A DNA stretch of 63,685 nucleotides, filler included, from Collodictyon triciliatum (taxonomy: Eukaryota): NCBI GenBank assembly GCA_043381765.1. It is 13 parts of 13 records of this genome, joined end to end, with 100 filler letters (N's around TTAATTAATTAA, not from the genome) between each part and the next. Parts side by side here need not be neighbours in the genome. Positions count along the whole stretch, not along the records: positions 10,316 to 15,369 come from JBHJMP010005530.1; 12 more parts are not named here. The stretch is one strand, 5' to 3'. Below, one piece after another: positions 3,558 through 25,469 of the stretch. Under the pieces are notes generated by a model. That model was not told where the DNA came from. It made no database searches and was given only the letters and a program-made list of their open reading frames with translations. Numbering within the stretch: position 1 is the stretch's first letter; the number at the start of each line of letters is the position of its first letter. The translations under genes were made by a program, and so were the position numbers.

Positions 3558-4496
3558 TCAGTACTTGACAGCCTTGAAGTGCTTGGAGAATAGGTGGTCC
3601 TGTGCGGTGATTGGGGGGTATTTTGGTGCCTCGCCTTCCTCGGATACGATGCATTCGACCAAGGTGTCAGGGTTTGGGTTGTGGAAGAAGGCGATGGACT
3701 GGCGTCGCGTGTCAATGCCCAGATTCTGGTGCGGATTCACGACACGATGCATGGTGGATTTCCAGCGGTCATTGGTCCAGCGGGCCATCAAATCTCCGAG
3801 GTTGACAACAAACGAGTCCGGGATGCTTGGCACGTCCTGCCAGGAGCCATCCTTGTTCATGACCTGCAACCCACCCGGGGCGTTGTCAGCAAGCAGGATG
3901 GTCAGGCTGCCGTAATCGGTGTGGGCTGAGGCGCGAAGCTGGCCAGGCTCCGGGGCGCGGTCCTGGTGAGGGTAATTAAGGATGCGAATGGCTGACTGGT
4001 TACGGTCCAGCTTGGCCTCGAACCAGTCCTCAGGTAGCTTCAGGGCCAGCGCAAATATGCGCATAAGCTGGGCGGCAAGCTGCTCCATCGTGCGGAAGTA
4101 TCTGGTCACGTGCGGCTGGAAATCCTCCGGCTGCGCGGGCCATGGGATGTCGGCCATATTGAGGCAGATGCTGTAAGTCTCCTTCCAATCGCGGACAGCG
4201 GCCGTCTCTGCCTCCAGGGACCGTGACAAGACCTCGTGCTGCTCGTAGCCGTATGCAAAGTCTGGCCTCATTCCGACCTTCTGCTTCTCGCTGAAGGGCT
4301 GGTCGAAGAAGCTGCGCGAGACATTCCATGCGCCCTCGATGATGTCCTTGGGCACGTTGTGTCCCGTGATGGCCAGGAACCCGACCTTTTCGCACGCAAA
4401 GAGCATGTCCGACACGATTTTGTTGCGCTCTGCACTTCCGACAGGCTGGTTGAACCAGTTCGTGAGGTCGATGACGGGGATGCTTGCTTCTGCCAT
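3558..4496 (-). CDS. 2-oxoglutarate/Fe(II)-dependent dioxygenase (IPNS/DIOX_N family), intronless
   Basis: MAEASIPVIDL..ACEKVGFLAITGHNVP (DIOX_N), LNYP, HTDYG (HxD), STMHRV (distal His), RQS (RxS 2OG binding). Confidence 0.93.
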   Translation of the reverse strand: MAEASIPVIDLTNWFNQPVGSAERNKIVSDMLFACEKVGFLAITGHNVPKDIIEGAWNVSRSFFDQPFSEKQKVGMRPDFAYGYEQHEVLSRSLEAETAAVRDWKETYSICLNMADIPWPAQPEDFQPHVTRYFRTMEQLAAQLMRIFALALKLPEDWFEAKLDRNQSAIRILNYPHQDRAPEPGQLRASAHTDYGSLTILLADNAPGGLQVMNKDGSWQDVPSIPDSFVVNLGDLMARWTNDRWKSTMHRVVNPHQNLGIDTRRQSIAFFHNPNPDTLVECIVSEEGEAPKYPPITAQDHLFSKHFKAVKY

Positions 4497-4599
4497 TGAT
4501 TGTTTTTCTTGTGGAGGCGATGAAAGGCTGCTATCATGAATAAGATAGTTCTTCGTAAGGTATTGTTGCTTGTCGGCTCTTGTTTTTGAAGTCATTATT

Positions 4600-5059: not shown

Positions 5060-5159
5060 NNNNNNNNNNNNNNNNNNNNNNNNNNNNNNNNNNNNNNNNN
5101 NNNTTAATTAATTAANNNNNNNNNNNNNNNNNNNNNNNNNNNNNNNNNNNNNNNNNNNN
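5060..5159. other. Artificial 100-nt contig linker N..TTAATTAATTAA..N (recurs at 10216, 15370, 20524, 25674, 30820, 35968, 40997, 46140, 51282, 56426, 61565)
   Basis: Identical six-frame-stop linker embedded in Ns every ~5.1 kb. Confidence 0.98.
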
Positions 5160-5428
5160 CGCTACTCTGACCGCAAGTGAAGAGAGATGTGGGAATGTGT
5201 CGTGCGATATCTCCCGCAACATATCCAACCCCTGCTACCCACGCAACCAATCAACCAGTTGGGACGCCCTCCTGACCAGCTTGCTATCACTGATTTCTTT
5301 CCAGTGCTAGCCTCTCCACGGTAGTGTCTTCTCCTACTCGCGTTTGCTCTCACCCATGCGCACCTATCTCGCCCCTTTGTATGGCATAACCTTGCTGCAC
5401 TTTGAATCGAATAAAGACAAGAAAAAAA
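5160..5428 (+). mobile_element. 3' end/UTR of a non-LTR retrotransposon (same family as 27791-28325)
   Basis: Closely matches 28065-28325; ends TTTGAATCGAATAAAG plus an A-rich tail. Confidence 0.8.
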
Positions 5429-5607
5429 TACCTTGGAGTGAATGACATGATTCGGAATATCTATTATTAGCAAAATATAAAAAACTGAAAATAAATAATG
5501 AATTGAAAATTGTTGAAAAATAAAGAAAAAAATCAAATACATTACAAGAATGTAAGTTTCTTAAGAGAATGATATAATTATTAATTTATGTTTGTTTAAT
5601 CATTTAT

Positions 5608-8600
5608 TCATTGTGAAAAGGGGTCAAAAGATTGTCTTTTCTTCAGATTTTTCATCTTGACCAATTTTTGCTTGATTTCGCCAATTTTGAATAGAGGAAT
5701 CACAAAAGCGATTGACGCAAAATAAAGCAGCCAGATTGAGTTCATTCCAATAAGCAGAGCTGTAATCCACGATTGCGAGTCGAAAAGAGTCGACATGAGC
5801 GAAAGGAAGAAGGACAAAAAAATAATGTAGAGGCTGGACAACTCCATCTGATTTTCGATTTTCGAGTGGTAAGGCTTATACTCTTTTTGCATCCAAATTG
5901 AGCCCTAATAGTTTGTGCTTGATTTAATATTAATTTTCAAAAATATTTCATGTATTGCACCATATAAATAAATATTTAATCGACCTGAATAACGATGATG
6001 AGAAGCACGAAGAAAACCGCTGGGCTTGTGTATGGAATGACACTGAGCACAAACGAAAAAGCGATGCGGCGTGCGATTATGACAAACTCCCAATACCTGA
6101 AGGTCTATATAACATAACTCATAAATAATTCAAAATTGATAATGGAAAAGAAAGAATATCGAATCACATACCTCTTTGTATGGCAAGTAAAGGAATCCAT
6201 ATCGCGCTCCTGGTTCGTATCCAGGTCTTTCTGCCATGATTTTCACTTTCCACAGTACAAAAGCAGGCAGACCGACCCAGATACCATTTATTCACACCTT
6301 CGTCATAAACGGTGCATCCAAAAACACCAAACACCTCTCTTGCGACCGAGTAGTATATAAAAAACAGAAGATTCAAGGTGATGAAAACAGCCTGCAATAA
6401 AATATTATTTTTTTTTTAGAATTACTAAAGATGAAGCTGAAACAAATATAAAGATTTTACAATTAGATGTATTTTTCCTCCTTACTTTGTTCTGCTTGTG
6501 TCCATATCCGAAATAGTACGTGGCTGAGCCAATAATGATAAAGATTGGTATTCTTGCAAAACTAAAAATCAGGGAAACAAACACATCGTCCACTCCAAGG
6601 ACACACGAAAGGCTGGGAAATTGAATTGAACCAATCGACGATGAGACTTCGACGAAGCTATTTGCATCTTCTGAAAGAACGATTCCACCAGCAACAATCG
6701 ACAGTGTTTGCATGTGGAACATTATTATCCTGAGTTTCGCTACAAAAAAAATATTCTGATTAATAAAGAAAGAATCAAGTGAAATAATTAGTAACATTTA
6801 CCTGATTTTGATGTCTCTGTGAAATACAGATAGCAAATGAACATAAAGAATCCAATCGAACCAAGAACCAGGGTTGAATAAATCGTTCCTTTATCGCATT
6901 TCACACATGACCTCCCTTGATTTCCGTATCCATTCTGACATTTTGAGCAGGCATTACCTTCATAACCCTCTTGACAAAGGTCTGTGATTTCGACCGTCGT
7001 ATTTGAATTCGAAATTTTCTCTGGAATCGATACATCACATGACTCGCGACGTGGACACGGCAGTATTGATTTCACAGAGGTAATGCTTGGTGAAGCATGA
7101 CAGAATTTCAAGGACGTTCCATCAAGGCAATCACATCCTCTTGGGCATTGAACGCAGTTATTTCCAAAACCGAAATATCCAGGTAAGCATTTACAAAATT
7201 CAAATCCGTAGTATTCTGGATTCAAGTCAACCTCTAACTCAATCAGACCAGATTTCGAAATAATGGAAGGACAAAGGTAGCGTTTCGTTTCGTCTTGCAG
7301 ATTGAAACTTGTTGTGAAATTCATGAAATCAGGAAGGAAATTAGCTGTTCCATGATTCATCGATGTTGTATTCAATCCCAAATACTCAAGCTTTGAAAAT
7401 CCTATGTATGATTCAGGAATGCTTTCAACAATCGGATTTCCAGTGAGGTCAAGGGAAGTCCATCTCAATAATTTTGTGAGTTCATCAAGCTTAGTGATAT
7501 TGTTATTTTTAAGATTTAATGTTTTCATGTTAAGAACATAGTCAAAAATCAACCAATTCAATTCCCCAGAGATTTCATTATCATCAAGCAAAAGGTTTTC
7601 ATAGAAATAATCGATATTGTCTGAACGAGGAACTAAGAAAACAGCAATGTCTCCTGAAAACGAGTTGTTTCTCAAGTCAATAGTAACTAGATTTGGCAGA
7701 TTCCAGAATAAATCAGGCATGCTTCCGAACAATTTATTGTGAGATAAAACGAGTGATTTCAGCTCAGGTAATTCCTGAAAATAGGCTGGGACTGTGCCTT
7801 TCATTTTGTTCCAAGACAAATCGATGTATTCAATTGAAGGCAATGACGAGTAATTGGGAACAAAGCCAGTGATTTGGTTTTCACTCACATCTAGTCTTGT
7901 CAGATTCTTCAGATTGAACACCGGTAATGAGCCTGACAACTTATTTCGGAGCAATACTATTTCCTTGATTTTTTCGCAATATTTGAAATCTGGAACATTT
8001 CCCTCCAACTGATTGTCATAAACAGAAAAAATCTCCAGTTTACGCATATTTGAGAAGTTTGGAATCGTGCCTAAAATTACTCATTAAAATTTGAGGAAAT
8101 ATGAAAATCAAAGAAATAGAAAGGGAAAATAATTAGAAATCACCATTCAATCGGTTTCTATCAAGGTAAATTCTTTCTGCATTTGAAATTCCGTTGAAGT
8201 TTGGAACGGTTCCTGTAATTTAACGTTAGTTTGTATTAATAATGCATGAAATAATAAAAACAACATACCATTTAATTGATTGCTGTAAAGATATATTATT
8301 TCAATCTTTGGAATCCTACTGAAGTTTGGAACTGTTCCTGTCATATAAAGTTAGCTTCTTTTTTATATTACATGAAAATAATAATTAAACTTGCCAGTCA
8401 ATTTATTGCTGGAAATATTAATTCCTTCAAGATTTGGAATTCCGTTAAAATTTGGAATGGTTCCTGTAATAAAAAGTTAGCTTTCATCAATAATGCATGA
8501 AATAATAATAAATCTTACCAGTTAATCGATTGCTGTCAAGAGAAATTATTAGAATACTTGAAACTCCATTAAAGTTTGGAACCGTTCCTGTAATGTAAAG

Positions 8601-10215
8601 TTAGCTTTATATATATTACATGAAAGATATAACTAAAATTTACCATTCAATTGGTTGCTGGAAAGAGAAATTCCTAAAATATTTGAAATTCCACTGAAGT
8701 TTGGAACCGTGCCTGTAATGAAAAGTTAATTAATTTTCATCAATAATACATGAAATTATTATAAAAACTTACCACCCAACTGATTTCTGTGAAGAGAAAT
8801 TATTTCAAGATTTGGAACTCCACTGAAGTTTGGAACCGTTCCTGTGGTCTTAAGTTAGTTTTGTATCAATAATACATGAAAGTATAATAAAAAAAATTAC
8901 CATTCAACTGATTGCTGTAAAGATAAATTTCTTCAACATTTGGAATTCCAATGAAGTTTGGAATGGTCCCTGTAATATAAGTTAGTCTTGTACTCATATT
9001 ACATGAAAATAATAATTTAAACTTACCAGTCAACTGATTGGTGTGAAGAGAGATATCTAAAACATTCGGAATACCACTGAAGTTTGGAATCGTTCCTGTA
9101 GTATTAAAATTAGCACTTGTATGCCATCATATTTAATTACATAGAAAACAAACCATGGACATTGCAGCTATAAATTCCAAGAATCTGAAGATTTGGCAAC
9201 GCTGAGAAATCAGGCAGAGTTCCTGAAATGGAAAAATCATTAGAATTCAGAATAAACCTTATAGGAAATCACTCCAAACCTGTAATTTTTTCACTATCGC
9301 CAATGTATAATTTCTTAAGCGACTGTATTTCAGAAAAATCTGGTATTGTTCCTTCCAATTCATTCCCATCAATCTCAATATGTTCAATATTCGGCATTCT
9401 TTGAAAGTCTGGAATCGTTCCTGTGATTCGATTCACATAGAGATTCAAAGACGTAATACTTGGGAGATTAAAGTCTGGAAGATTTCCGTAAATGGAGTTG
9501 TGGCTCATGTCCAAATAATCCAATAATTGAAACTTTTCAAAAATCGCAGAGGCAGCTTCAATGTCACCGTTAAGATTATTTTCAGTCATCCTGATTTCCA
9601 CGATAGAACATGTGTTGCTCTACAAATATAAAGGAAAATATGTTAAGAATGATATCAAAATATATTATTGTCATTTCAAGGAATACCTTATAGTCTTCAT
9701 CTGAACAGCTCTGATGACACGATATTCCATACCAATCACATATCGGAATACTTTCATTCTTCCATCCAGTGTTCCGAAACCAATTATCGCCGCCAAGTGA
9801 ACCGTAAAGTTGGACAAGCAGTTCGTATTGGGTCCCAGGATTTCCATCGGCCACATTTCGACTCTTTTCGTTCTCTAACCCTCGTTTCCTGTTTCTACTT
9901 CGTTTTGATGAATGAATTTCTTGATAAAAATCGGCCTTACTAGATGTTAATTTTCTTCCATAATTCCATTCAGCACCATGTCCATTTTCTAAAGAGTGTT
10001 CTCCATCTTTGCAGCCATTCATCAACCCTGTAAAGTTATCCTCACTCTCTTTTAACAAAGGACAGTTCTCATCGTAGTGGCTCAACAGAATTTGGAACGC
10101 ATCTTCGACTTTCATGGAAAGCAACTCATCTCTTGAATACTGGCATCTGTTTTCCTTATTTGAGTCGAAAGTGTATTTTATAAATATTCATAAATCAACA
10201 CATACCTTTGACGTG
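5608..10215 (-). CDS. LRR receptor-like protein: LRRNT cap, many 24-aa plant-type LRRs, Cys-rich region, multi-pass TM C-terminus (5' truncated)
   Basis: LYGSLGGDNW..NTGW..ICDWYGISC cap; L.L..NQL.GTVPNF LRRs; CKCLPGYFG..CVQCP, CQEGYEGNACSKC; several hydrophobic helices at 5608-6900. Confidence 0.88.
8143..9222 (-). repeat. Tandem array of ~9 units (~125 nt), each one 72-nt LRR exon plus a homologous short intron
   Basis: Recurring AAGTTTGGAACCGTTCCTGT exon edge and AAGTTAGC..ATAATGCATGAAATAAT intron core. Confidence 0.85.
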
Positions 10216-10315
10216 NNNNNNNNNNNNNNNNNNNNNNNNNNNNNNNNNNNNNNNNNNNNTTAATTAATTAANNNNNNNNNNNNNNNNNNNNNNNNNNNNN
10301 NNNNNNNNNNNNNNN

Positions 10316-13300
10316 TTCCTGTCGCCAAGTTGACCGAGGGCGAAATTAAGGATGGTGTCGAATCCTTCCTCATTCGCTATGACAAGACCCTGAGCGAAAA
10401 TCAAGTTGGAATGATTCTGGCTGACCTGGATGATACCGGTGAGACATTTTTTTAAAAGAATATATATTTTGATTAAATCTTATAAGGAATAATTAGTTAT
10501 TCATTCTCTGAATTTTTTATAGGCCATCCGCTCTATTTGCGCATCATTCTGGATGAGGTCAGGGTCTTTGGAGTCTATGAGAAGCTCGATGATGAACTGA
10601 ATACTCTGCTCTCAACCAATGGTGTCATCGAGCTTTACACTCTCATTATTCAGCGCTGGCAATTGAAGTTTGACAGGAAAGGTGAGTATTGATTGTACAT
10701 ATTTCATAAAAAAAAAAGTGCAAATTATAATCGAAATTTTTGTTGAATACTTTTTTAATTGTACAGTCGCCACGTCTGATGGAAAAGAGGCAATGAAGGT
10801 CGAGTACGTCTCCCTCTCGATGAAGGTTCTCTTTGTCTCTCGCATTGGCCTGAGTGAAGGTGACCTGGACAAGTACATGAAAGACGCGATTGGCACAGGA
10901 TTTGAGCTTGCTGAATGGTTTGCTTACTCTTGAATATTATATAATGAATAGGTTTACCCTATCTCATTTTCTTTTTTATTTAAATTATCCTTTTATCCAT
11001 TCAAATAGGAAATCCTTCTTCTTTACCCTCATCGAGTCGCTCTTCGTCCGCAATGGAAGGTTAGTGTTATTTCTCATCCTTTTCGTTCGTTAATCGGTGC
11101 TTTTGTTATAAATTTATTTTGGATGTAAAGCTAACTATTGTCTATCATAGATACATGTACTTCCACCAGCTGCTACTGGAGACCACTGAAATAGTATACT
11201 TCTCCGAAAACCAGGAGATGGGAAAAACGCACGAAAAATACGGAAAATGGCTGTTTGGCCAGTATTCTGAGTCTGCCGACGCGGATGAGGAGCTTGCTGC
11301 TGAGATTTGCTACCAGCTTCTGAAGGGCAGTTCGTTTGACTTGCTTGTGGAATACATGAAGCAAAAACATGTATTTTTTTATTTTTATTTGATTATTTTC
11401 ACTCATAATGAAATGTCATTAACTGATTATTTATATATTTCATAGGTTATCAGCATCATGCTCGGTGGTCGCTATCGCTACGAGTTCTTTACATGCTGGA
11501 GAGCAATCAACGCAAGCGGAGCTGCGAACTACAAGGATGCTTATGGAAGCTTGGCTAAGGTAATTTTACTATATAATTTTAATTTTTTGAAGGTTACTAC
11601 TCACAAATTTAATTATCAATCATGATTTATCTATTAATTATTGTTTTTTTCAGTCTTTGGATAAAGTGGGAGACCTGCTGGTTGGATTTTTCCTGGAGTC
11701 TTTTGAGAACTCGTTCTTGTTGTCTGTTCTGAATGTGCGTCTTGGAAAGCATCAGACAGAAGGTATGCAATTTATTGTTAATTTTGATGAATTTAGGTTA
11801 TTAATATGTTTTATGTATGGAGACGTTCAATAATCTATCAATTTACAGATGCGAAGGCTGCTGATTACCTGAATCTTGGTCGTGTCTACAAGAACCTCCA
11901 AATGTAAAAAAACATAAAAAAAACATTAGTGATTATATATTAATACATGACATGATGTTTTAATGGCAACTTTTCTAAAATAAAATAAAAATAAACAGCT
12001 GGTCTGAGTCCATGGTCTATTACAAGAGATGTCTTGATTCAGTTGAGAAGAATACCGATAATTCCCGGCGTATCGCCACCATTCATGAAGAAATGGGAAT
12101 CATCTATCAGCAACAGGATAAGTAAGGCTCGTTTGCAATTATAAATTAAATCATGAATAATGTTTCAAAAAGGAATTATTCTGATTTGCTTATCATGAAA
12201 TAGGATTGATGAAGCTCTTGATGAATATAAAAAATCACTGGACTTGAGAGTCAAACAACTGGGCGAGAACGACCTGCAAGTGGCCCAGTCACATGACCGC
12301 TTCGGAGACATCTATGTGAAGCAGTCAAAGTAATATTTGAATCATCTATATTCGTTAACATTCTGGTTTTTATTTTGAAAATATATAAGTATGCTGATGA
12401 ATTTGTTATGATAGCAATGAGCAGGCTCTGGTTGAATACACAAAGGCCATGGAAATCCGCCAAAAGAAAGTCGGAAACGAGCATCCTCTTGTCGCAACAT
12501 CGTACCAGAACTATGGCCATGTCTCTCTGGCTGAGAAAAAGTAGCACAGTCATTCGATTCAATGGTTTTAATTATGATAATTTGAAAATATTAATATAAT
12601 TGAATCATCAAGGTATGAAGAGTCTATTAAAAACTACGAAAAGGCGAAATCAATCCTTGAAAAATCGCTGGGAGCTAAGCATGCATCTGTTGCCTCGACA
12701 ATCCAGTTCATTGCAAACGTTCATCTTGCTAGTGAAAAGTTTGGATTTTTAACCTACAGATATTTTCATAAAACAATAATAATTTTCCTATGCTTTTCAA
12801 TTTTTTAAAATGTGTGTTGCTTTCATATTGTTCATTTTTATGGACTCTATTTGGGGTTAATTTTATTATATAATATATTCTAATTAAATAAATATCAAAT
12901 AAATATCTTATATAGGAAAACTGAGGCCTTATCCTCATTAAAGCAATCACTGGATATTTTCATCTCTGCCCTGGGTGAAAATCATCCGAATGTCGTGGCC
13001 TGCTATGAAATGATTGGAGACATCAGCCATGATTTGAAGGAGTATCTCTTTATGACTTATTTAATTTTTAATTAAAAACAATAATTTATTTACTCACATT
13101 TTCCTAGCTTTAAGGGTGCTTTGGAGGCCTATACAAAGACGCTGGATATTCGCATGAGAACATTGAGCGAAAGACATGCTGACTATGCGACTTCCCTGGA
13201 GGATGTTGGCCGAACAAACTTTGAGCTTCAAAGGTAGATTTTTGTATTATTTTAAAATTTTAAATATTTTATTAAAACCAATGAAAATAATAAATATTAA

Positions 13301-15369
13301 CTAATATGCATGTATCTAGTTCTGCTCAATGTGTTGATTGCTTCCAGAAGGCAGCTGCTATCAGAAAGGAGACTAAGACAATCATGTCAATGAAAGACAC
13401 CCATCAGATTGACAATATTATCCGCCTCATGAAGGACAAGAAAGAGCATGAAGCCGCCATTCAGCTTTACAAAACAGCTGCTCTTAGACATGGTGAAAAG
13501 TCATCCTATGAAAACTGGGACTGCTGGGTGGCTTGTGAGACTGCGCACCAACACTGCAAAGAGAACAAGCTGTATGAAAGTGGCGTCGCATTCTGGGCTG
13601 AGATGAGAGACAGATTCGCAGATAAACTCGGATGGATTCACCCCAGAACATTAAATTCATGCGAATACTTGTCCGTCCATTCAAATGGAATCAGAATCAA
13701 CAAAGAGCCTGTTGAGTTTACGAGAGTCAAGGAATTCATCTGTGAAACTCTTGATGATGCAAAACTGGATGAGGAATGGAATCGTGAGCAAATCATTGCG
13801 CCATTATTCAGAATTGTCTACATGTCAAAGACTGATGAAAGCAAATCAAAGGCTGCATCTGATGCAATCACACTTTTGAATTTCATGAATATTTCTTTCG
13901 GTGGAATGGATTTATCAAACATCAAAATTCCGCATGCAAATCTCAGTAACTCAATCCTTGAAGGTGCAAACTTCTCGGGTGCCAACTTGGATGGTGTTGA
14001 CTTCACGAATTCGATGCTTGGTGACTGTGTTTTTGATAATGCAAAAATGAATAGTGTGAAATTCGGAATTCCTTATGATAAATTAGAAGGTCATACATAT
14101 TCTGTCTATAGTGTTTGCGCTATTCAAGGACCGAATGGTGAAAAGTGGCTGACTTCTGGAAGTCATGATAAAACAATACGTGTTTGGGATGTAGCCACAG
14201 GAAACCAAATTAAAACACTAGAAGGTCATACAGATGCTATCAATAGTGTTTGCAATATTCAAGGACCGAATGGTGAAAACTGGTTGGCTTCTGGAAGTCG
14301 GGATAAAACAATACGTGTTTGGGATGTAGCCACAGGAAGCCAAATCAATATATTGGAAGGTCATACAGAAGGTGTCAATAGTGTTTGCAGTATTCAAGGG
14401 CCGAATGGTGAAAAGTGGCTGGCTTCTGTAAGTCGTGATAAAACAATACGTATTTGGGATGTAGCCACAGGAAACCAAATCAAAACATTAGAAGGTCATA
14501 CAAGAGAAGTTGACAGTGTTTGCAGTATTCAAGGACCGAATGGTGAAATGTGGTTGGCTTCTGGAAGTCAAGATAAAACAATACGCATTTGGGATGTAGC
14601 CTCAGGAAACCAAATCAAAACATCAAAAGGTCATACAAGCAATGTCAACAGCGTTTGCAGTATTCAAGGACCGAATGGTGAAAAGTGGCTGGCTTCTGGA
14701 AGTTTTGATAAAACAATTCGTATTTGGGATGTGGCCAAAGGAAACCAAATCAAAACATTAGAAGGTCATACAAGTTATGTCAATAGTGTTTGCAGCATTC
14801 AAGGACCGAATGGTGAAAATTGGCTGGCTTCTGGAAGTGTGGATAAAACAATACGTATTTGGGATGTAGCCTCAGGAAACCAAATCAAAACATTGGAAGG
14901 ACATACAAGCGATGTCAATTGTGTTTGCAGTATTCAAGGACCGAATGGAGAAAATTGGCTGGCTTCTGGAAGTTGGGATAAAACAATACGTATTTGGGAT
15001 GTAGCCACTGGAAATCAAATCAAAACATTGGAAGGTCATACTGAGACTGTCAAAAGTGTTTGCAGTATCCAAGGACCGAATGGTGAAAAGTGGTTGGCTT
15101 CTGGAAGTTTTGATAAAACAATACGTATTTGGGATATAGTCACAGGAAACCAAACACACAGTCTGCAAAAACTAGAAGTGACCTACACCCAAGGAAAATA
15201 CCTCGTCAAGAAAGAAAAGCCAGACGAAGTCATCGCAGTATTCAACAGAACAAGTGATGCGATGAACATGATTGACACCAACAGAATCCAAGATGCAAGG
15301 ACAGTCCAGATTATCGGCCCAAGAAAGCTGCAAGGTGGAAACATCCAAATCAAAAATGTCACGGGATTG
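10316..15369 (+). CDS. NLR-like/STAND protein fragment: post-NTPase helical region (NPHP3/TEP1-like), TPRs, pentapeptide repeats, 8 WD40 repeats; truncated at both ends
   Basis: GHPLYLRIILDEVRVFGVYEKL (G.PLYL motif after NACHT-type NTPases); TPR exons (LGAKHASVAST, LGENHPNVVAC); ANLSNSILEGANFSGANLDGVDF; LEGHT..WLASGS.DKTIRIWD x8. Confidence 0.82.
14083..15153 (+). repeat. 8 x 135-bp near-identical WD40 repeats
   Basis: 45-aa period with near-identical DNA between units. Confidence 0.95.
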
Positions 15370-15621
15370 NNNNNNNNNNNNNNNNNNNNNNNNNNNNNNN
15401 NNNNNNNNNNNNNTTAATTAATTAANNNNNNNNNNNNNNNNNNNNNNNNNNNNNNNNNNNNNNNNNNNNTCTTCTCTTCTCTTCTCTTCTCTTCTCTTCT
15501 CTTCTCTTCTCTTCTCTTCTCTTCTCTTCTCTTCTCTTCTCTTCTCTTCTCTTCTCTTCTCTTCTCTCTCTGATGAATCACAACAACGAAAAATATGACG
15601 TATGCTTTCTCTTGCTCGTTA

Positions 15622-17088: not shown

Positions 17089-19967
17089 TTAGTCACCGAA
17101 GGAAACGACATTGTCGCCGATGGTTTTGGCCAGAGCACTAGTTAGATACGGCTGGCGGCCAAGGCGAGCAAGCAGCTCCTGGGGGATTCTGGACGATGCA
17201 AACTCTGCCATCAAAATGCGAGCGTCGGCTTGTGTCTCCTTGTCGAGGTCTTCCGCTTCACGCAGAATCCATAGCAAATATGATACAGGTAACAACAGAT
17301 TGCAGGAGTCTGTCAACCCATCGCACCCCTCTGCACCCTTTTCTAGCGCACCTATCAAGTCTCCACACAGAAGAACTTCCATACTGAATGATGGTGAACA
17401 AACTCTGTAATTATTATTGTTATTGTTAATATTATATTTATCTATTTTTTGTTTTTGGATGAGCGTAAATGAAGAGAAAATATAAAGAAAGGAAAAAGAC
17501 GCGTTCCATATAGCAATTCTTCATTCTTATCTTCTTTGAGAGACATCGTCACGCGTTTAAACGTGATTATTTCGGATGTATTATGTGAATTGGAAAGTAG
17601 AAAGGCAAAACTTTAGGTGTTCACATACTCATCAATTCTAACCTGTTCCATTCAAGTGCGTTTGGTATTTTGAAGGTGCGGATTACACTCAGCTCTAAAT
17701 CATGTTGTGTATGGGAGGTTTCGCGATTATATGGTGTATCTGACCAGAATGAGTGTGCGCGCTGACTTGCATCTTTTTTGGCCAAGCAGAGACTATGGCG
17801 CAGGTATATCTTAACCAGAAATCGACGGAAGTACCAAAGACTCTCGTGGCTGGGATAGCGCTGAATTAAATCTGAGTTATACATGAACTCCTGTGCAAGA
17901 ATATGGGCATAATCGAAACCTAATATATTATGATTGTTAATGGTAAAATAAAAATGAGGAAAAAAAAGAAGGATGTTTGGCATTCAATTGAAAGGAGTGC
18001 AAGGTTGTTTTTTTTTCTTTTTCTTTATCTATCAAAACAAAGATAAAAAATAGTTAAAACAGTTAGTCACCATCGATGAGGCTAGACATCTTTTCAAAAA
18101 TTTTGAATCTGTAATGAAAGGCTGAATGGTCAGACACATTTTTGTTTGTCCATTCTGTGATGTTGTTCAGCTCTGTAACCAACTATATGAATTTGTTTTG
18201 TATTTAAAATGTCTGTCTTTGTAATAGTTGAGGAGGAAAGCAAAATAACACTATTATAATAAAAGATGGAAGTTAAGATATTGTGCCTGAAGACAGAGAA
18301 TCATAATCGCAATTAGTTCAATATATCTATATATGTAGATAAAAAAAAGGTGTATGGGGCACTCAGTCGTGTAGAGCTTAAATCGATGATATGTTGCTGT
18401 TTTTTTTTTCTTTAAAAATGAAAAAAAAATTATGTGAAACCCATTCACGCGAGTTCGAAATGTCCATGGTAAACAGGCGGTGAGTCCACGCGTAATAATT
18501 CCTTGGGTATGCAACGGCCACTCGGGTACAAACACTCATTTCATGGTTCAATACATCTTCCGACACCGAGGGATGATTCTTAATCAACCACTTTCTGCGT
18601 TTGGCAATNNNNNNNNNNNNNNNNNNNNNNNNNNNNNNNNNNNNNNNNNNNNNNNNNNNNNNNNNNNNNNNNNNNNNNNNNNNNNNNNNNNNNNNNNNNN
18701 NNNNNNNNNNNNNNNNNNNNNNNNNNNNNNNNNNNNNNNNNNNNNNNNNNNNNNNNNNNNNNNNNNNNNNNNNNNNNNNNNNNNNNNNNNNNNNNNNNNN
18801 NNNNNNNNNNNNNNNNNNNNNNNNNNNNNNNNNNNNNNNNNNNNNNNNNNNNNNNNNNNNNNNNNNNNNNNNNNNNNNNNNNNNNNNNNNNNNNNNNNNN
18901 NNNNNNNNNNNNNNNNNNNNNNNNNNNNNNNNNNNNNNNNNNNNNNNNNNNNNNNNNNNNNNNNNNNNNNNNNNNNNNNNNNNNNNNNNNNNNNNNNNNN
19001 NNNNNNNNNNNNNNNNNNNNNNNNNNNNNNNNNNNNNNNNNNNNNNNNNNNNNNNNNNNNNNNNNNNNNNNNNNNNNNNNNNNNNNNNNNNNNNNNNNNN
19101 NNNNNNNNNNNNNNNNNNNNNNNNNNNNNNNNNNNNNNNNNNNNNNNNNNNNNNNNNNNNNNNNNNNNNNNNNNNNNNNNNNNNNNNNNNNNNNNNNNNN
19201 NNNNNNNNNNNNNNNNNNNNNNNNNNNNNNNNNNNNNNNNNNNNNNNNNNNNNNNNNNNNNNNNNNNNNNNNNNNNNTTTTTTTTTCTGGTTTATTTTTA
19301 TATGAATCTGATAAGTTGGGATATTAAAAGAAAATACAAAGATGTGTAGATAAAGATGGGCTGCGGCTTGGGAATTTATGGAAGTCCACAGATATAATTA
19401 CCAAACTTTGGATGTTTTTTCCATTTTGTGAGAAGCATAAAGGCGTCCTTGTACAATTTCGTCAAAATGGAATATGATATACAAAGCTTGTGTTCAAAAA
19501 GTTCAAAGTCGGCCTACAAGTTATTATTATTATTATTATATTTTAAAAAAGCCAAATAAAACTTAAATCCAAACACAATATATAAAGATCCAGACACTAA
19601 TAAAAAAAAATAGCAAGACGAATTGTCTGTTATCTTCATCAAAAGAGCATGTTATATAATGATAAAGGAGAGTATACATCATAGCCCTCTTCATCTTGCA
19701 AGTTCCTTCGGAATCCAATCTCGTTCCTATATGCAACACCAAAAACAAACAAAAACTGTGAATTATACGCACTTATTATGTTTCATATATCAGAGTAGTA
19801 TATCTAAATAAAGACTGTATGATTCTCCTTGCTTGCGCTGGGGTATTCTTGTGCAGAGTGTATATACATAACACCAAAGAAAAGGCCTACACATGTGGAT
19901 CAAGAGCAAAGATCTCGTCGAGCACGTCTAACGGAGCCCCGTCCCTGCGCTTGAAGTAGCGCTGCAT
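17089..19967 (-). CDS. PTAR1: Protein prenyltransferase alpha-subunit repeat protein (PTAR1-like), multi-exon, spans a gap
   Basis: PPTA motifs YPRNYYAWTHR, SDHSAFHYR, YPSHESLWYFRRF; N-terminal LDEIFALDPHV. Confidence 0.72.
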
Positions 19968-20758
19968 GCCCTTCCTGCGACTTTTTTTTTTTTTGTTGTT
20001 GAAATTAATGATAATAATGAAAATAATAATAATAAAGAAGAAAAAGAAAAAGAAAAAGAAAAAGAAAAAGAAGAAGAAAAAGAAAAAGAAAAAGAACAAT
20101 AAGAGCACGAACAAGAATAACAAGAACAAGAACGAAAAAATAGTTAAATGATGTAAATGACCCAGCGAGAAAGGGACATGGATTTCTGATTGAGTTGGCT
20201 TCTGTGAATTCATTTTTTTTTTTTATTTATTTATTTAATTCTTTCGATAGTGAGAGGGGATAGGGAGAGAGTTTGCTTGCCTCCACTGCTTTCGAGCCCT
20301 GGGAAGAAAGAGAAAGAAAAAGAAAAAGAAAACGAGAGAGACGGAAAGTGAAAGAGAAAGAAAAAACTTGGTGATTCCCATGGACACATCACGACTCTTT
20401 TTTCTTTTTTTTTCCTTCCGTTTTTTCTTTGAAGTCGAGCCCACACACAGACTAACAGCCGACGCCATCCTACGAGAAGAGGACCTTGACATTGTGGTCG
20501 CGACCATCATCGACAAGCTCAAANNNNNNNNNNNNNNNNNNNNNNNNNNNNNNNNNNNNNNNNNNNNTTAATTAATTAANNNNNNNNNNNNNNNNNNNNN
20601 NNNNNNNNNNNNNNNNNNNNNNNGGCGGCGTTTCTCATCGAAATATTGAAAAATCCTTTGTTCTTTCCTCCTGTCTGATTATTCGCCATTCCCTGTGTTT
20701 TTTTTTAAAAAAAAAGAAAAAGAAAAAAAAAACACCTTTCTTTCTTCTCTTTTTTTTT

Positions 20759-20798
<40 letters not shown>

Positions 20799-22154
20799 TC
20801 TCACCTCTGATTTTAAGAAGAAAAAAACATACTCCAAGAATCTAAATGGCTGCCTGTGTCCTGGCTCGACTTCTCCCCTTTTGCACATCACGTTCCAATC
20901 GCGATTCATTCATCCCAAGTTAATTGCAAACAAGTCTCAATAAGGCGCATCGTTAATTCTGGAATATATAATATATACCTCATATAAATCCGTATTAGAT
21001 TGTTAAATTAAATTTCTTAAACTGATAATAGTAACAAATGTCGTAATTCAAGGTATACATAATCTTATATGGCGGGGGCAACACTAGAGAACTGGGCATT
21101 TCCCAGCAATTTTAATTATGGAAACGGTTTATAGCCATTTTTCTAAATTAAGAAAAGATGAACACAAATCCAGATATAGATATTCCAAACACAGACGGCC
21201 ACATACGAGAGTGGCGGATTTATCCCAAATAATCGAATTCCAACCGACGTCATATGTGCTCTGCCTGTGGCGAATACGAAGCTGAGCCACAGAATGATGC
21301 CACCGAAGCGACATACCATGACGCTTGCAACCATCTTCCCAAGCAGAAGCAAAGAAATTGACAAGCAAAAATGTGCTAACCAGTATTTAATCATACGACT
21401 TTGTCACTATTATTGTTGTCTCGAATGACAAAGTATACCGTCTGCGCTTCGAATGTGCCGGTTGGTGACGTATGCCTTGAAGAATATATTGAAAGGGATT
21501 GTATAAATACAAAAGTTGTTTGTTTGGGTGGGAATATGGCTTATAAACGAACGGCCGCGTTGGAAATGATTATGTTCCCCTCAGACAAATGTATGCTGCA
21601 TGGGTGGAGTGAAGGGCAAGTGTGCAACGTGGGCGATTCTCAAAGGAAAGCCGAATTCATGGGTGTTTTGAGCGGAATACGTGTGGAGGGAAACTGTTTG
21701 TCCCGAAGCAACTGTGTATTCTATTGAATCCAAGCCCAGGCGAATGACAAGACGCTTGTGTTTGTAATAGCTTGGCTGTGTTGCAGACATTCCTGTGTGT
21801 TTGTTAGGCTTCGTCTCTCGTGCCCCATGAGTAGAAATCATCGGGGAATCCTACAATATGACTATGACAAGTCGAGTTTTCTCACTTCAACACCCTGGTG
21901 TATATTCTTTCCTCTGGGTGGTCTCGTCACCGTCTCTTTGATTCGCAAGCTGTTCTTGGGAATTTCACCTGCCCGTGTGTCTTGTATACTCTTCGACTGA
22001 GCGACTTTTCCTCTGAGAGACTTTTCCTCTGAGCGACTTTTCCTCTGAGTGACTTTTCTAGTTTCCTACTTACTGAACCAAACTCTTTTAACACATAGGA
22101 CTCCACAAGAACACAAAGATTCACATACACACAAGCAAGATAAGCGTCACCGAT

Positions 22155-23768
22155 ATGTCCACAATGCCTTTTACCTTCCAGCCTTCTGGTCACGAATTCG
22201 CCTTCAAGAAGAAAGTCTATGAAGGTTATTCTTTTCCGTTTCTCTTTCTCTGGAAACTTCTCTTCTTTTCATCCACCCGCTCTTTTGCTCAATCGGCATG
22301 TTTACGCTTCACAGCCTCTGTCGGGATTCGCACGGCACACGAAGCCCCAAAATGCTCGCAAGACCTTAGCCTTGACTTCCTCTCAAACTACTTCCATCTG
22401 CGAATCAACGATGTTGCCAAGGTAAACACCTTGCAAGTGACTTGCTCAATCAAGTCCTTAACGAATGGTTGCTTAGATCACTTAACCCTTTTTCTATTGT
22501 TCACATGCTAGAAGATAACGGGACTCTTGTGCACTATTCCTTAAGCCTCTATATCCACATCAATAGAAACTAGGAATCTGTGCTACCGTCCTGAAAAAGA
22601 TCTGCCGCAAGAACGGCATCCCACGCTGGCCGCACCGTCGTGTGAGTCTTTCTTTGAGCAATTCTTCGCTGACACACATAGAAACCAGATAACTGGACCC
22701 GAATATATCATTAAATCATATTCACCCTTGCTACTCAACAGATCAAAAGCTTTGACAAGAGAATCGAGCTTGCCCAAATCGCCCTTTCTTCTGCCAGTAC
22801 CAGCAGCAATGCCGAGGAACGGGAGCGCCTCTTGCAGGAGCTCGCCGAATGCCAGCGCCAACGCGATCTCCTCCTCAAAAACCCTGGACTCATCTGTAAG
22901 ACACAGCTCCAAAGAAATGAAAAGACCAAAGAAAAAAAATGAATATAATACAGTCTTCATAAGAACCATAAGGAAAACACAAGGACACCTCAGAATATCG
23001 TAAATGACCTCCCTTGAGGAAATAGATTAAGAAACACAGCCCTGCTCACCAGACAACATTCACAACCACGCAGCCAAAAGCCTTTCACGCCGCAGCCTTG
23101 CCAGCAACCCAGGCCATCAGTCCCAAAGCAGCTTCGACTCAAGCGACGAAGACACAAGCGATGAAGACAGCGACCACTGCAATGGCAACACCAACCTCAA
23201 AGCCGGCCCTACCAACACATCAAGCCACGCACGCCGCACCCTGCGCGCCTCAAAGCCGCTCGGGAAAAGCGACCGAATGGGATTTGGCACCACCAGCCCG
23301 GTCCTTGGCTCGTCCACGCCCACACCCGCCTCGGCATCGCCTTTGCCGCAGTCGTCATCGGGGCTGTCACTGTGCTCGCTGGGCTCGTACGGGTCGCTCT
23401 CCTCGGCCCACTCGAACGTCTCGATGCCGCTGCCGACGAACAGGACGGCGCCTTTGTCGTCCAACACGGGTGCAAACACAACGCCGCTGCGGAAGCGCGC
23501 ATTTGCCCAGGCATTCGAGCCGACGCAGCCGTGTCTGTGCTGCCCAAACAACGCGCCTGCGGCCATCCGCGTGGCCCACTTTGCCCCGCACGAGCCTCTG
23601 CCTGCGCCTGTCTTTGCCCCGGCCCCGAGAGCCGTCCCGCTCGCTGTCGCTGCCACACATGGGCCGTCCAATCCGCTCGACGCCGAAGCTGCCCGGACGT
23701 TGCAGCCGCTGCTGGATGTCATCTCTCTCGCCATCTTTGCAGACGGCCCGCTTGCCCCGCGCGCGTGA
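22155..23768 (+). CDS. RWP-RK domain transcription factor
   Basis: Spliced exons give LSLDFLSNYFHLRINDVAK|KLGICATVLKKICRKNGIPRWPHR|..IKS, followed by a coiled coil and a Ser/Pro-rich tail. Confidence 0.88.
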
Positions 23769-24572
23769 CTGGGCTGCGCATCAGCTTGTTATCTTTCTCT
23801 ACTTTCGCCATACTTATTACTTTCCTTTTGAACTACTTTATTGCTTGATATTGTCCATCGCAAATGATTCACCAGAAAGCACATTTCTTTTTTTTTTCTC
23901 TCTCACACTCTCTCGTCTATATCGCTCTCCATAATCACCACCGGGTTGCCATGCCTATGCGACCCCTTCGCCTTTCCCTCCAGAGTGCACGTGCCCTCTC
24001 GTCCTTCCCTCTGGGCTGTCATATCTGTCCTTTCAAATCCCGTTGAAGATTTTGTTCTCTTCCTCGGAGAGATACCTATGAGGAGGGCATGCACAGTTTG
24101 GAAACTGGGCTTTTCCTTCTTCCTCTCTCTATATGTATATCTATCCATCATTGAAGCTGCACCCCAACACTTATCCATCTATTTGCTCATATCCATTCTG
24201 TAGTACGCAATTCGTAGCATCATCATGAAGAAACAACCATGCAAAAAAAAAAAAAAGCTGATATGAATCCTTTATTATGATTGCATCGCAAATCGCCGCT
24301 CCAATCACAAACCAATCACCCGTCTATAATAAAACAACCACATCAAATAACCACAGTCTCGCCACCTTTCCAACCCCTTGCATCCATCAAAGCTAAGCGC
24401 CACCCCAAACAGACAGCCAACACCAACTTGGTCGATTCCTATCATCACCATCATCATCATCATCACCATCATCATCATCCTTTCTTTATATATGCTCCTC
24501 AATCCTGGGCGGCTGTGCGCGTCATATCACCACTCTCGCCTCTGTTCTGCGCGCTTCCTTGGATAGATGCCA

Positions 24573-25330
24573 CTATGCATTTGCTGCCGAAAGAGCCTCC
24601 AGATTGCTTAGTGCTTGGCTGACCGGAGCCAAAGCCTGGCTGAGTTCCTGGCCCAGCACAAGCATCAAACCCACATCGGCCGTGGGCTCGCCGAAGAGCG
24701 TGATGATCAGCGGCGATGAGTTGATCTGGACAAGGCTGTTGTGCTCACTGATTTGCGTGATGCTGCGGTTCGGGCCCAGACCGAGTTTATTGGCCTGGAT
24801 TTAAATATGTATATTGTAGAGTGCCACATAGTGTGATGTGCATGAGTATGATTGTAATTGTGATTTTGATGTGCTTATGTGATAGGACTGACCTGCTCAG
24901 TTGAGAAGGCGAATGTAGTCACATATTGCGAAAGTAGTGATTGGTCGCCGTCCATCACGGATGCTGTGTTGTGATTGGAGGTGCAGTCAATAGAACGTGC
25001 AGTAAGAAGAGTGATGGCGCTCGAATGCACAAGAATACACAGTTCTATCAAACCTTGGACGATGCAGACTCCTTCAAGATCGGTGATCTGGATGGCAAGA
25101 AGGCCGGGTATTCTAGGAGTGTACAAGTGAGAAAGTGTGTGTCTTGTGTGTTGATGAGGAGCCCGATGACTTCTTTATCGCTTCACGCCTTATGAATAAA
25201 GCGGAGGGAGTTTGCTCCGTGAAATGCTAAGCTTGGGTGTTTTTTTTTGTTTGTTTGGGTTTCTGGAATAAAAGCCGAACCTGGTCACAAAGTTTTCAAC
25301 AAGGGTTTGGATGCTGGGGTGGACCTTTTT
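24573..25330 (-). CDS. LAMTOR3: Ragulator subunit LAMTOR3 (MP1)-like; start exon approximate
   Basis: IPGLLAIQITDLEGV; TFAFSTEQ|ANKLGLGPNRSI..VQINSSPLIITL...DVGLML. Confidence 0.8.
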
Positions 25331-25469
25331 GTAAGCAGGTAGTTATGAGTACTTATTTTACGGTCTAGTAAGAATAGGAAGAGATATGCGCTGCTGCGCG
25401 ACGAAAGAAGGGCTTGTTTGGGAGCCGTGATAAGACAGCATAGAGACCAAAAATAGTTAGAAAGGAAAG

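Follow-up and report, generated by a model that had tools for sequence, protein, structure and literature searches.

A candidate NLR-like gene with probably homogenised WD40 repeats and clustered variable codons in the protist Collodictyon triciliatum

The partial gene and its relatives

The stretch of DNA analysed here (the window, 63,685 nucleotides) is a chain of ~5-kb contigs of Collodictyon triciliatum. Region 10316..15369 on the plus strand is exactly one whole contig of 5,054 bp, flanked on both sides by N...TTAATTAATTAA...N spacers, and it carries a partial gene, whose 5' and 3' ends are both cut by the contig ends. The spliced frame is open to both contig ends and comprises 1,261 codons in 15 exons separated by 14 GT..AG introns. 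It encodes a helical region followed by TPR_12 repeats and a TPR-like linker, then pentapeptide repeats, a propeller predicted to have eight blades and, last, a tail; the last exon of the model (2,050 nt, intronless) holds the linker, pentapeptide and WD40 repeats. The 15-exon model thus bears out the first-pass annotation, which had described a helical domain, intron-rich TPRs and a large intronless pentapeptide/WD40 exon. The features are as follows.

10318-10438, 10523-10681, 10767-10917, 11009-11059, 11151-11370, 11446-11559, 11654-11762, plus strand: exons 1-7, helical region, post-NACHT in relatives
11849..13233, plus strand: exons 8-14, TPR_12 repeats, kinesin-light-chain-like, 42 aa, from exon sizes and GT..AG sites
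13320..13878, plus strand: TPR-like linker at the start of the large intronless exon, ~186-190 aa, all-helical, family-specific
13879..14064, plus strand: pentapeptide repeats (Pfam PF00805), a short beta-helix leading into the propeller
14089..15168, plus strand: eight tandem 135-bp (45-aa) WD40 units, from Tandem Repeats Finder, codon register and Pfam WD40
in each unit: variable codons 4-5 at +9..+14 from the unit start, codon 7 at +18..+20, codon 26 at +75..+77
15169..15369, plus strand: C-terminal tail, incomplete at the contig end, from the P0034 alignment

All of the nearest relatives identified come from one protist, Diphylleia rotans (transcripts P0033, P0034, P0035 and P0036; EukProt EP00002), and share with the C. 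triciliatum gene the domain order, the linker, the 45-aa GPNGExW-type unit and the tail, at 45-55% identity. The gene is colinear with residues 806-2139 of P0036 (45%), 888-1245 of P0033 (55%) and 2-1150 of P0034 (45%). Comparison with P0036 gives 49% identity over 840 columns with no gaps in the model; 13 of the 14 exon junctions are gap-free, gaps against P0036 being confined to the vicinity of the exon 2/3 junction (10 positions).

No Pfam match was found in the six exons scanned among exons 1-7. Model residues 1-368 align to residues 888-1245 of P0033 with 55% identity, and this alignment starts 39 residues from the end of the NACHT/nSTAND1 match of P0033 (span 700-927; NACHT at 735-903, 27.4 bits vs. 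a cut-off of 26.7; nSTAND1, 32 bits vs. 27.1). Judged by colinearity with P0033 and P0036, exons 1-7 are the helical domain that follows NACHT. In P0033, DUF4062 lies at residues 461-552 (42.9 bits vs. a cut-off of 24.7) and matches the solved TIR-like domain of TEP1 (E 3.4e-15); its CH domain is above the Pfam cut-off, and the CH domains of the relatives match the actin-binding domains of plectin and alpha-actinin. The N-terminal parts of P0033 and P0036 hold CH and DUF4062, with HET not listed. A P-loop NTPase, DUF4062 and any effector are absent from this contig and from all other contigs of the window. Since the colinear D. rotans transcripts carry CH, DUF4062 and NACHT upstream, we infer that an NTPase lies upstream in the C. 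triciliatum gene as well. Of the "NTPase-associated helical domain" initially proposed, the helical part stands, being colinear with the post-NACHT region of NACHT P-loop proteins, while the NTPase itself is absent here.

Exons 10-14 are 126 nt each, with a split codon at every boundary, i.e., one TPR repeat per exon. Five of the 12 small exons, scanned singly, match TPR_12 (PF13424) at 22.4-25.7 bits vs. a cut-off of 30.1, and the colinear P0034 scores 136 bits. The TPR exons are mutually 38-52% identical in DNA, and thus are not homogenised. For the linker, a phmmer search against 1.84 billion representatives yielded five matches at E<=0.001; its AlphaFold2 model has ten helices (mean pLDDT 83.6), for which Foldseek returned weak kinesin-light-chain TPR matches alone (best E 3.9e-3, TM 0.33-0.40). 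A 77-aa fragment, P0037, 70% identical to the linker, is found on another short contig, so there must be at least one related copy somewhere. The pentapeptide repeats match PF00805 with E 1.8e-18 (66.2 bits vs. a cut-off of 20.2) at residues ~187-248 of the exon protein. In the tail, ~70 further residues are expected (model residues 108-1258 align to 2-1150 of the 1219 residues of P0034); it is poorly modelled, with pLDDT <50 from residue 429.

TPR, pentapeptide and WD40 are the repeats among the profile matches to the gene, and LRR families are not among these matches; by the strict animal/plant definition (NACHT or NB-ARC with LRR) the gene is not an NLR, C-terminal LRRs being absent.

The proposal that a module had been grafted onto a TPR gene is not supported for a recent event: the whole TPR–linker–pentapeptide–WD40 order is colinear with D. 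rotans, and the large exon itself opens with the ~190-aa TPR-like linker, which also counts against recent grafting. This leaves room for an ancient domain fusion.

The WD40 array and its variable codons

A single array, at 14082-15154, was detected by Tandem Repeats Finder, with a period of 135, 7.9 copies, 87% matches and a score of 1557. The first GHT codons are at 14089, followed by seven more occurrences spaced exactly 135 nt apart; the last unit ends at 15168, and the resulting 1,080 nt contain neither frameshift nor stop; Pfam WD40 (PF00400) matches eight stretches (E 8.9e-85). Hence, the eight 135-bp repeats seen initially are indeed eight in-frame 45-aa units. Calling them almost identical in DNA was too strong, as DNA identity between pairs of units ranges from 0.785 to 0.919 (mean 0.86). 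At the amino acid level, pairwise identity is 0.67-0.91 (mean 0.79, and 0.83 for units 2-7), and identity to the consensus is 0.78-0.93. The mean of 0.79 is borderline relative to the definitions of high internal conservation, at least 85% amino acid identity over at least 100 aa (Dyrka, 2014) or, in the accessible part of a later study, 80-100% (Ament-Velasquez, 2025). In 17 of the 45 columns, a single codon is used in all eight units, and GC3 of the WD40 part is 0.26, vs. 0.46-0.54 elsewhere in the gene.

In contrast, the mean pairwise identity of D. rotans units is 0.41 in P0034 (seven units) and 0.47 in P0036 (13 units); P0036 has 19 WD40 units, compared to eight here. In a tree with the D. 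rotans units, the eight C. triciliatum units form one group (support 83/75; 84% of 200 bootstrap trees), and the D. rotans units of two paralogs interleave. This lends moderate support to within-gene homogenisation relative to the D. rotans units and, because the D. rotans repeats are only 41-47% alike, the homogenisation is, as far as these sequences tell, specific to the lineage of the C. triciliatum gene. Paralogs with the same WD40 repeats, the other loci suggested for a search, were not found within the window.

Replacements among the units are unevenly distributed. At least 41 amino acid replacements occurred over the 45 columns, 16 of them on codons 5 (seven), 26 (five) and 4 (four), as anticipated by the first-pass annotation, whose lists of residues following GHT and preceding DKT are all correct. 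A sum of at least 16 on the top three codons was seen in 3e-5 of 200,000 uniform multinomial draws, a value to be read with the post hoc choice of the codons and the sample of one allele of one gene in mind. The numbers of different residues are five at codon 4, eight at codon 5, four at codon 7 and six at codon 26. For codons 4, 5 and 26, pN is 0.684; at the other 42 codons pN is 0.075, and pS is 0.212. The three codons contain only 1.6 synonymous sites, too few for a local dN/dS, and the per-codon check for selection used neutral star-tree simulations with the synonymous divergence of the scaffold (dS ~0.25). Eight different residues, as at codon 5, arose in 5e-6 of 200,000 simulations at dS 0.25 and 1.7e-4 at dS 0.4; multiplied by 45 codons, the neutral probability is ~2e-4. 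Codon 5 is diversified far above the neutral simulation, whereas neither codon 4 nor codon 26 by itself exceeds neutral expectation after the 45-codon correction [P(>=5)=0.041, P(>=6)=0.0051].

The eight units are predicted to close into one beta-propeller of eight blades: AlphaFold2 pLDDT is mostly 89-99 across it, and eight-bladed structures (Tako8, TM by target 0.89-0.92) rank first among the Foldseek matches. According to DSSP on this model, strands a-d occupy unit positions 6-13, 19-25, 29-34 and 40-45; this places positions 4-5 in the d-a loop, position 26 in the b-c turn and codon 7 at the start of strand a, beside codons 4 and 5. The variable codons thus map, as had been suggested, onto the elements that hold the selected codons of the HNWD (HET-NACHT-WD40) allorecognition receptors of the fungus Podospora anserina, namely the d-a loop and b-c turn at the top of the propeller, according to the accessible part of Paoletti et al. 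(2007), with their top-face placement here read from strand topology rather than measured geometry. Unit position 28, taken as the counterpart of the fourth HNWD selected codon, is an invariant Lys.

Possible explanations

With moderate confidence, we interpret the contig as the C-terminal sensor half of a large NACHT-class STAND (NLR-like) NTPase, with a homogenised WD40 array and a diversified binding face. The full family order, as read from D. rotans, would be CH – DUF4062 – NACHT – helical domain – TPR_12 – linker – pentapeptide – WD40 propeller(s) – tail. Homogenisation of the array, or its re-amplification from a single unit, would have taken place in the lineage of this gene, and a few residues of the d-a loop and b-c turn, at the putative ligand-binding top face, would have been pushed to diverge faster than synonymous sites. 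Analogy with APAF-1, HNWD and TEP1 suggests that the variable face may bind a variable ligand; binding would free the NACHT module from autoinhibition and allow oligomerisation, and the N-terminal TIR-like domains, an effector presumed for this gene from its relatives, would be brought together to signal or kill via NAD+ hydrolysis. By the same analogy, an immune, non-self or recognition-receptor role is plausible. A bolder view, which we regard as rather doubtful, is that this protist lineage independently evolved HNWD-style recognition diversity on the DUF4062-NACHT chassis shared with TEP1, NWD1/2 and NPHP3.

Another explanation, which seems unlikely, is that one WD40 unit was recently amplified in tandem and that the differences are neutral drift at weakly constrained loop positions, with no role in recognition. 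The modest dS and the single-codon columns are as expected after recent duplication, the low GC3 is consistent with a copied founder unit, and, once multiple testing is corrected for, neutrality suffices for codons 4 and 26 by themselves. However, drift hardly accounts for eight residues in eight units at codon 5 even after this correction, nor for the concentration of replacements on three codons, and the hot positions fall in the very structural elements selected in HNWD.

Less likely still, the gene may encode a housekeeping DUF4062-NACHT scaffold, comparable to ciliary NPHP3, vault TEP1 or NWD1, whose TPR and WD40 repeats bind fixed partners and which the CH domain of its relatives would link to the cytoskeleton. 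In agreement with this, the relatives join a plectin/alpha-actinin-like CH to DUF4062-NACHT, and the TPR exons also give weak matches to TPR_NPHP3 (89.7 bits in P0034 vs. a cut-off of 100). Moreover, several members of the DUF4062-NACHT family, including human ones, are described as having non-immune roles, and three of the four human proteins, NWD1, NWD2 and NPHP3, were inactive as NADases in vitro (accessible part of preprint 10.64898/2026.05.01.722283). However, lineage-specific homogenisation and binding-face replacements are unexpected for a fixed partner, and the D. rotans paralogs diverge ordinarily, the C. triciliatum gene being the exception.

An assembly artefact, in which units of paralogous arrays or alleles were joined or dropped, so that their order, number and residue combinations are unreal, is very improbable: the assembly is highly fragmented, with ~5-kb contigs and internal N gaps, a related copy exists (P0037), and short-read assemblies may omit or create highly conserved WD40 repeats (Ament-Velasquez et al., 2025, accessible part), but the 135-nt period is exact and the frame intact, reads of at least 100 nt would be unique in the array because the longest exact stretch common to any two places is 37 nt, and the eight units are predicted with confidence to fold as a closed propeller.

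Returning to the NLR-like sensor reading, homogenised repeats with a hypervariable surface have been documented mainly in fungal NLRs, with other groups mentioned in passing, and a protist example would add a further part of the eukaryotic tree to those in which the homogenise-and-diversify strategy is found. A literature search, with subscription journals outside its coverage, found no published description of this architecture in a protist. If the bolder view of independent evolution is true, repeat homogenisation with surface diversification could be a general way for eukaryotes to build receptor repertoires, and the ancestral role of the DUF4062-NACHT chassis could be immune or cell-death signalling. 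The claim is modest, its basis being one partial gene in a fragmented assembly. The hypervariable copy here and the ordinary copies of D. rotans provide a natural contrast for asking what this chassis senses.

Comparison with known systems

The gene resembles the HNWD proteins (HET-E, HET-D, HET-R) in its STAND chassis of the NACHT class, for which the evidence here comes from relatives, and in the replacements focused at the propeller top; in common with HNWD and other fungal NLRs with highly conserved repeats, its C-terminal WD40 units are far more similar than usual. At the N terminus, the relatives have a TIR-like effector, and HET has been described as related to TIR. On the other hand, the HNWD unit is 42 aa (126 bp), compared to 45 aa (135 bp) here, alignments to proteins with 42-aa units having three gap positions, i.e., a three-residue insertion in the a-b loop; ~11 units form two seven-bladed propellers in HNWD, whereas eight form one eight-bladed propeller here; internal repeat identity is 85-100% in HNWD vs. 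79%; TPR, linker and pentapeptide segments separate NACHT from WD40; the host is not a fungus; in HNWD, repeats are exchanged among paralogs and vary in number (concerted evolution), whereas the present sample is one allele of one gene; and the relatives carry CH and DUF4062, not HET. The "HET-E-type" label and membership in HNWD are not supported, given the 45-aa unit, relatives with CH and DUF4062 in place of HET, and identity of 79%, borderline but below 85%.

As in TEP1, NWD1, NWD2 and NPHP3, where DUF4062 is described as a TIR-like NADase beside NACHT (10.64898/2026.05.01.722283, accessible part), DUF4062 in the relatives lies directly upstream of NACHT, and the helical domain is followed by WD40 repeats, as in TEP1 and NWD1/2, or by kinesin-light-chain-type TPRs, as in NPHP3. 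Unlike the animal proteins, TPR and WD40 here occur in one protein with pentapeptides between them, and the relatives have an N-terminal CH; homogenised or hypervariable repeats are not described for the animal proteins in the accessible part of the same preprint.

Finally, cyanobacterial NACHT–pentapeptide–WD40 proteins (~1,180 aa; e.g., from Nostoc and Aulosira) and a Paramecium pentaurelia protein have 42-aa units and neither the TPR array nor the family linker, with the junction following the NACHT module at ~residue 500. Nevertheless, the junction of helix, pentapeptide and first WD40 is colinear with that of the C. triciliatum gene, with 30-36% identity over ~170-250 columns in 18 of the 120 matches listed.

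The contig, its gene and its neighbours

The 63,685-nt window is a chain of about 13 assembly contigs of about 5.0 kb each, arranged in descending size and separated by N...TTAATTAATTAA...N spacers, with long internal N gaps in two of the pieces (18609–19277 and 33591–34467). The interval 10316–15369 is exactly one 5,054-bp contig, and hence the gene that it carries on the plus strand is cut at both ends; since the contigs are merely joined, adjacency in the window provides no information about the genomic context. The features used below are as follows.

5060–5159, 10216–10315, 15370–15469 and so on: spacers, N runs around TTAATTAATTAA
13320–15369, plus strand: last exon of the gene model, 2,050 nt, intronless

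The gene model, built from the three forward frames and GT..AG sites, comprises 15 exons and 14 introns of 66–177 nt, the G+C content being 0.21 in introns vs 0.46 in exons 1–14, and its open frame of 3,783 nt (1,261 codons) reaches both contig ends. Exons 10–14 are 126 nt each, with the codon split identically at every boundary, and thus each carries one 42-aa TPR_12 repeat. Homology to transcripts supports the model well: over its first 840 residues it aligns with P0036, one of four transcriptome-derived relatives from Diphylleia rotans (P0033, P0034, P0035, and P0036; EukProt EP00002), at 49% identity without a gap in the model, and the 10 gap positions on the P0036 side all lie beside the exon 2/3 junction, so that the 13 other exon junctions, including the one between the TPR part and the large exon, are gap-free. 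At the exon 2/3 junction (10681–10767), the 10 model residues without a counterpart in P0036 may stem from the use of another splice site or be a genuine small insertion.

The large exon matches two Pfam repeat families, WD40 in eight stretches (E 8.9e-85) and Pentapeptide (E 1.8e-18). When 12 small exons were scanned singly, TPR_12 was matched in five, every score staying under the cut-off, since a single scan covers no more than 41 residues; exons 1, 2, 3, 5, 6, 7, and 9, scanned one by one, matched no Pfam family (exons 4 and 8 are too short). The large exon opens with a family-specific linker of ~190 residues, for which phmmer, run against 1.84 billion representative proteins, yielded no more than five at E ≤ 0.001. 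AlphaFold2 predicts ten helices for it (pLDDT 83.6); Foldseek with this model returned nothing at E ≤ 0.001, with a weak likeness to the kinesin-light-chain TPR, and the ESM Atlas yielded TPR clusters only, with the best score of 0.78, short of the lead level.

The first-pass annotation had proposed a search for other loci sharing the repeat. A tblastn search of the window with the gene model and P0033–P0036 produced 0 HSPs outside contig 10316–15369, that is, the other contigs of the window contain neither related loci nor the missing 5′ and 3′ parts of the gene; Rfam gave 0 matches for the entire window. Several features of the other contigs were observed. Contig 5160–10215 carries a separate, unrelated intron-containing LRR gene on the minus strand (6788–8047 and 9269–9601), with plant-type LRR_8, LRR_4, and LRR_1 repeats (E down to 2.5e-19). 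Inspection by eye shows a stretch rich in cysteine and a hydrophobic segment after these repeats, and, judging from this layout, the gene may encode a receptor-like LRR membrane protein. An intronless 345-aa ORF at 3558–4595, minus strand, matches 2OG-Fe(II) oxygenase (E 1.8e-23) and the DIOX_N domain of its N-terminus (E 2.4e-20), and the contig following the gene starts with a (TCTTC)n microsatellite of 20.6 copies (15470–15571). Contig 20624–25673, especially 22001–24000, includes a stretch with G+C of 0.52, far above the rest of the window, and a GC skew of −0.245, strongly negative compared with the rest, and the ORFs of the 22001–24000 region look, on both strands, like low-complexity Ala/Arg/Pro/Ser-rich translations.

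The WD40 array and its variable positions

Tandem Repeats Finder reports one array, at 14082–15154 (period 135, 7.9 copies, 87% matches, score 1557). In-frame GHT codons occur first at 14089 and then seven more times at a spacing of exactly 135 nt, yielding eight 45-aa units, the last of which ends at 15168, with no stop and no frameshift. The residues previously read after GHT and before DKT are all correct; calling the repeats almost identical was an overstatement, as pairwise DNA identity is 0.785–0.919 (mean 0.86). Pairwise amino acid identity is 0.67–0.91 (mean 0.79, and 0.83 for units 2–7), unit 8 is the most divergent of the eight, and 17 out of 45 columns have an identical codon in all units. 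GC3 equals 0.26 in the array, 0.37 in the pentapeptide part, 0.46 in the linker, 0.54 in exons 1–14, and 0.52 in the tail; the low array value is probably the trace of a copied founder unit, and mutational or conversion bias may also stand behind it. RIP-like mutation was considered and rejected, the pairwise differences comprising 279 transitions vs 252 transversions with no transition excess.

Changes are indeed concentrated at few codons, as the first-pass annotation had noted: out of at least 41 replacements over 45 columns, 16 fall on three codons of the unit (seven on codon 5, five on codon 26, and four on codon 4), and a top-three sum of 16 or more was seen in 3e-5 of 200,000 uniform multinomial draws. 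According to the Nei–Gojobori method, the scaffold, comprising the other 42 codons, has pS of 0.212 (dS about 0.25) and pN of 0.075 and is under purifying selection, and pN at codons 4, 5, and 26 is 0.684, near saturation. These variable codons were picked after looking. They contain too few synonymous sites to compute a ratio site by site, and eight sequences likewise provide too few events per codon for SLAC or FEL; the gauge of selection used here is the scaffold synonymous rate.

Recent neutral amplification of the repeats is one alternative explanation. In our neutral simulations (omega = 1), codons evolved along a star tree scaled to the synonymous divergence of the scaffold, a choice of topology that makes the test conservative where distinct states are counted. 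Of 200,000 runs, the fraction giving eight residues at one codon was 5e-6 with dS set to 0.25 and 1.7e-4 with dS set to 0.4, and thus the codon with eight different residues is still significant after multiplication by 45 codons; codon 26 (six residues, P 5.1e-3) and codon 4 (five residues, P 4.1e-2) are not significant singly after the same correction. Gene conversion could have lowered the scaffold dS; in that case, selection would still be needed to hold the variable sites apart. Another alternative is a housekeeping role of the protein as a scaffold. An assembly artefact could be suspected because arrays of this kind are known not to be reliably reconstructed from short reads (Ament-Velasquez et al., 2025), but exact repeats inside the array reach 37 nt at most.

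For residues 185–683 of the large-exon protein (54-row alignment), AlphaFold2 produced a repeat region with mean pLDDT of 84.8 and pTM of 0.75, the units being mostly at 89–99 and the tail below 50. The best Foldseek matches in PDB are eight-bladed propellers, namely, Tako8 (TM by target 0.89–0.92), followed by Rsa4/NLE1, Fbw7, and ODA16. DSSP assigns strands a, b, c, and d of the model to unit positions 6–13, 19–25, 29–34, and 40–45, and therefore positions 4–5 fall in the d–a loop, position 7 at the start of strand a, and position 26 in the b–c turn. Placed by strand topology rather than by measured geometry, the variable positions would lie on the top face of the propeller; the 3-residue insertion (45-aa unit vs 42 aa) is in the a–b loop, on the opposite face.

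According to Paoletti et al. (2007), the selected codons of the Podospora HET-NACHT-WD40 (HNWD) allorecognition receptors form two pairs on the propeller top, 7 and 9 in the d–a loop and 25 and 27 in the b–c turn, each pair flanking one conserved residue. In our numbering, these codons would correspond to unit positions 5, 7, 26, and 28, respectively. Position 5 has eight residues among the eight units, position 7 has four, and position 26 has six; position 28 is an invariant Lys, and position 4 is a variable site additional to the HNWD-equivalent ones.

Relatives in Diphylleia rotans and the history of the repeats

A word-based search with exon 5 retrieved two proteins among 160 candidates, and the linker search added more; apart from the D. 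rotans proteins, the relatives found are a Synura TPR protein, a weak match, and a 77-aa fragment on a 713-bp contig, 70% identical. Of 408 candidates for the linker plus the pentapeptide part, 32 proteins matched, all through the pentapeptide repeats alone; since neither P0034 nor P0036 was among them, this search is uninformative on the family. The model is colinear with P0036 (residues 1–1245 to 806–2139, 45%), P0033 (1–368 to 888–1245, 55%), and P0034 (108–1258 to 2–1150, 45%).

The domains of P0033 above the Pfam cut-offs are CH (268–338), matching plectin and alpha-actinin, DUF4062 (461–552), with a match (E 3.4e-15) to the TIR-like domain solved for human TEP1, and NACHT/nSTAND1 (700–927); P0036 has the same N-terminal layout with a GKS-type P-loop, identified by eye. 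As the homology to the contig starts 39 residues past the end of the P0033 NACHT match, we may reasonably infer a NACHT NTPase with a DUF4062 effector upstream of the contig part.

The D. rotans units also have 45 aa, with the same insertion, yet are ordinarily divergent, the mean pairwise identity being 0.41 in P0034 (seven units) and 0.47 in P0036 (13 in-register units out of 19; the same 13 entered the tree, and one identity comparison used 14, one of them out of register). The 28 partial, irregularly spaced matches in P0035 were excluded from every repeat statistic. In a tree of 28 units, of limited resolution as it rests on 45 columns, all eight contig units lie on one side of a branch with support 83/75; they cluster in 84% of 200 bootstrap trees and, to the same extent, in none of 500 label shuffles, and units from the two D. 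rotans paralogs are interleaved pairwise. In the contig gene, the TPR exons share 38–52% DNA identity and are not homogenised. Judging from these comparisons, repeat homogenisation appears to be lineage-specific. Residues about 1633–2484 of P0036 contain 19 WD40 units of the 45-aa type, enough for at least two propellers, vs eight on the contig, and thus the repeat number varies widely within the family.

The large exon had been interpreted as a module grafted onto a TPR gene. The contrast between the intron-rich part and the intronless exon is real, but a recent graft is not supported: the TPR–linker–pentapeptide–WD40–tail order is common to the D. rotans transcripts, the large exon opens with the ~190-aa TPR-like linker, and in the tail GC3 returns to 0.52. 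The low array GC3 was also considered, and rejected, as evidence that the WD40 module was recently acquired by horizontal transfer, because the units are non-independent copies, the tail has the ordinary value just mentioned, and D. rotans has the same architecture. An old fusion of domains is possible.

The WD40-region search, with 8,000 proteins scored, gave 7,891 at E ≤ 1e-10 and revealed no close ortholog and no useful taxonomic signal; the best 120 are generic STAND-type WD40 proteins (32–54% identical) from cyanobacteria, fungi, and Paramecium. In 18 of these 120, the junction of helix, pentapeptide, and first WD40 repeat aligns colinearly; one of the 18 is from Paramecium, and most are NACHT proteins of cyanobacteria, about 1,180 aa in length.

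Comparison with known NACHT proteins

In the literature covered, whose scope left out most subscription journals, we found no published description of this architecture or of such repeats in Diphylleia or another protist. The evidence comes from a single partial gene in a fragmented assembly.

What the contig gene shows is the anatomy of a sensor and its evolutionary pattern; by analogy, a variable ligand would be bound by the variable propeller face, and this binding would switch the protein on. It resembles HNWD in the repeat pattern. The suggested membership in the HNWD type is not supported, as the units are of another length and fall somewhat short of the 85% internal identity set as a threshold by Dyrka et al. 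(2014), the relatives have no HET domain, and TPR and pentapeptide segments are additionally present. The cyanobacterial and Paramecium NACHT proteins differ in that their helix–pentapeptide–WD40 junction directly follows the NACHT module.

DUF4062 has been described in a 2026 preprint as a TIR-like NADase with a role in the defence of bacteria against phages and with activity in human TEP1; it adjoins NACHT in TEP1, NWD1, NWD2, and NPHP3, and the same source found no in vitro NADase activity for the latter three (10.64898/2026.05.01.722283). Although the N-terminal part that defines the DUF4062-NACHT group is absent from the contig, the gene fits this group via colinearity with its relatives, and it most likely encodes the sensor half of a STAND protein of the NACHT class belonging to this group.
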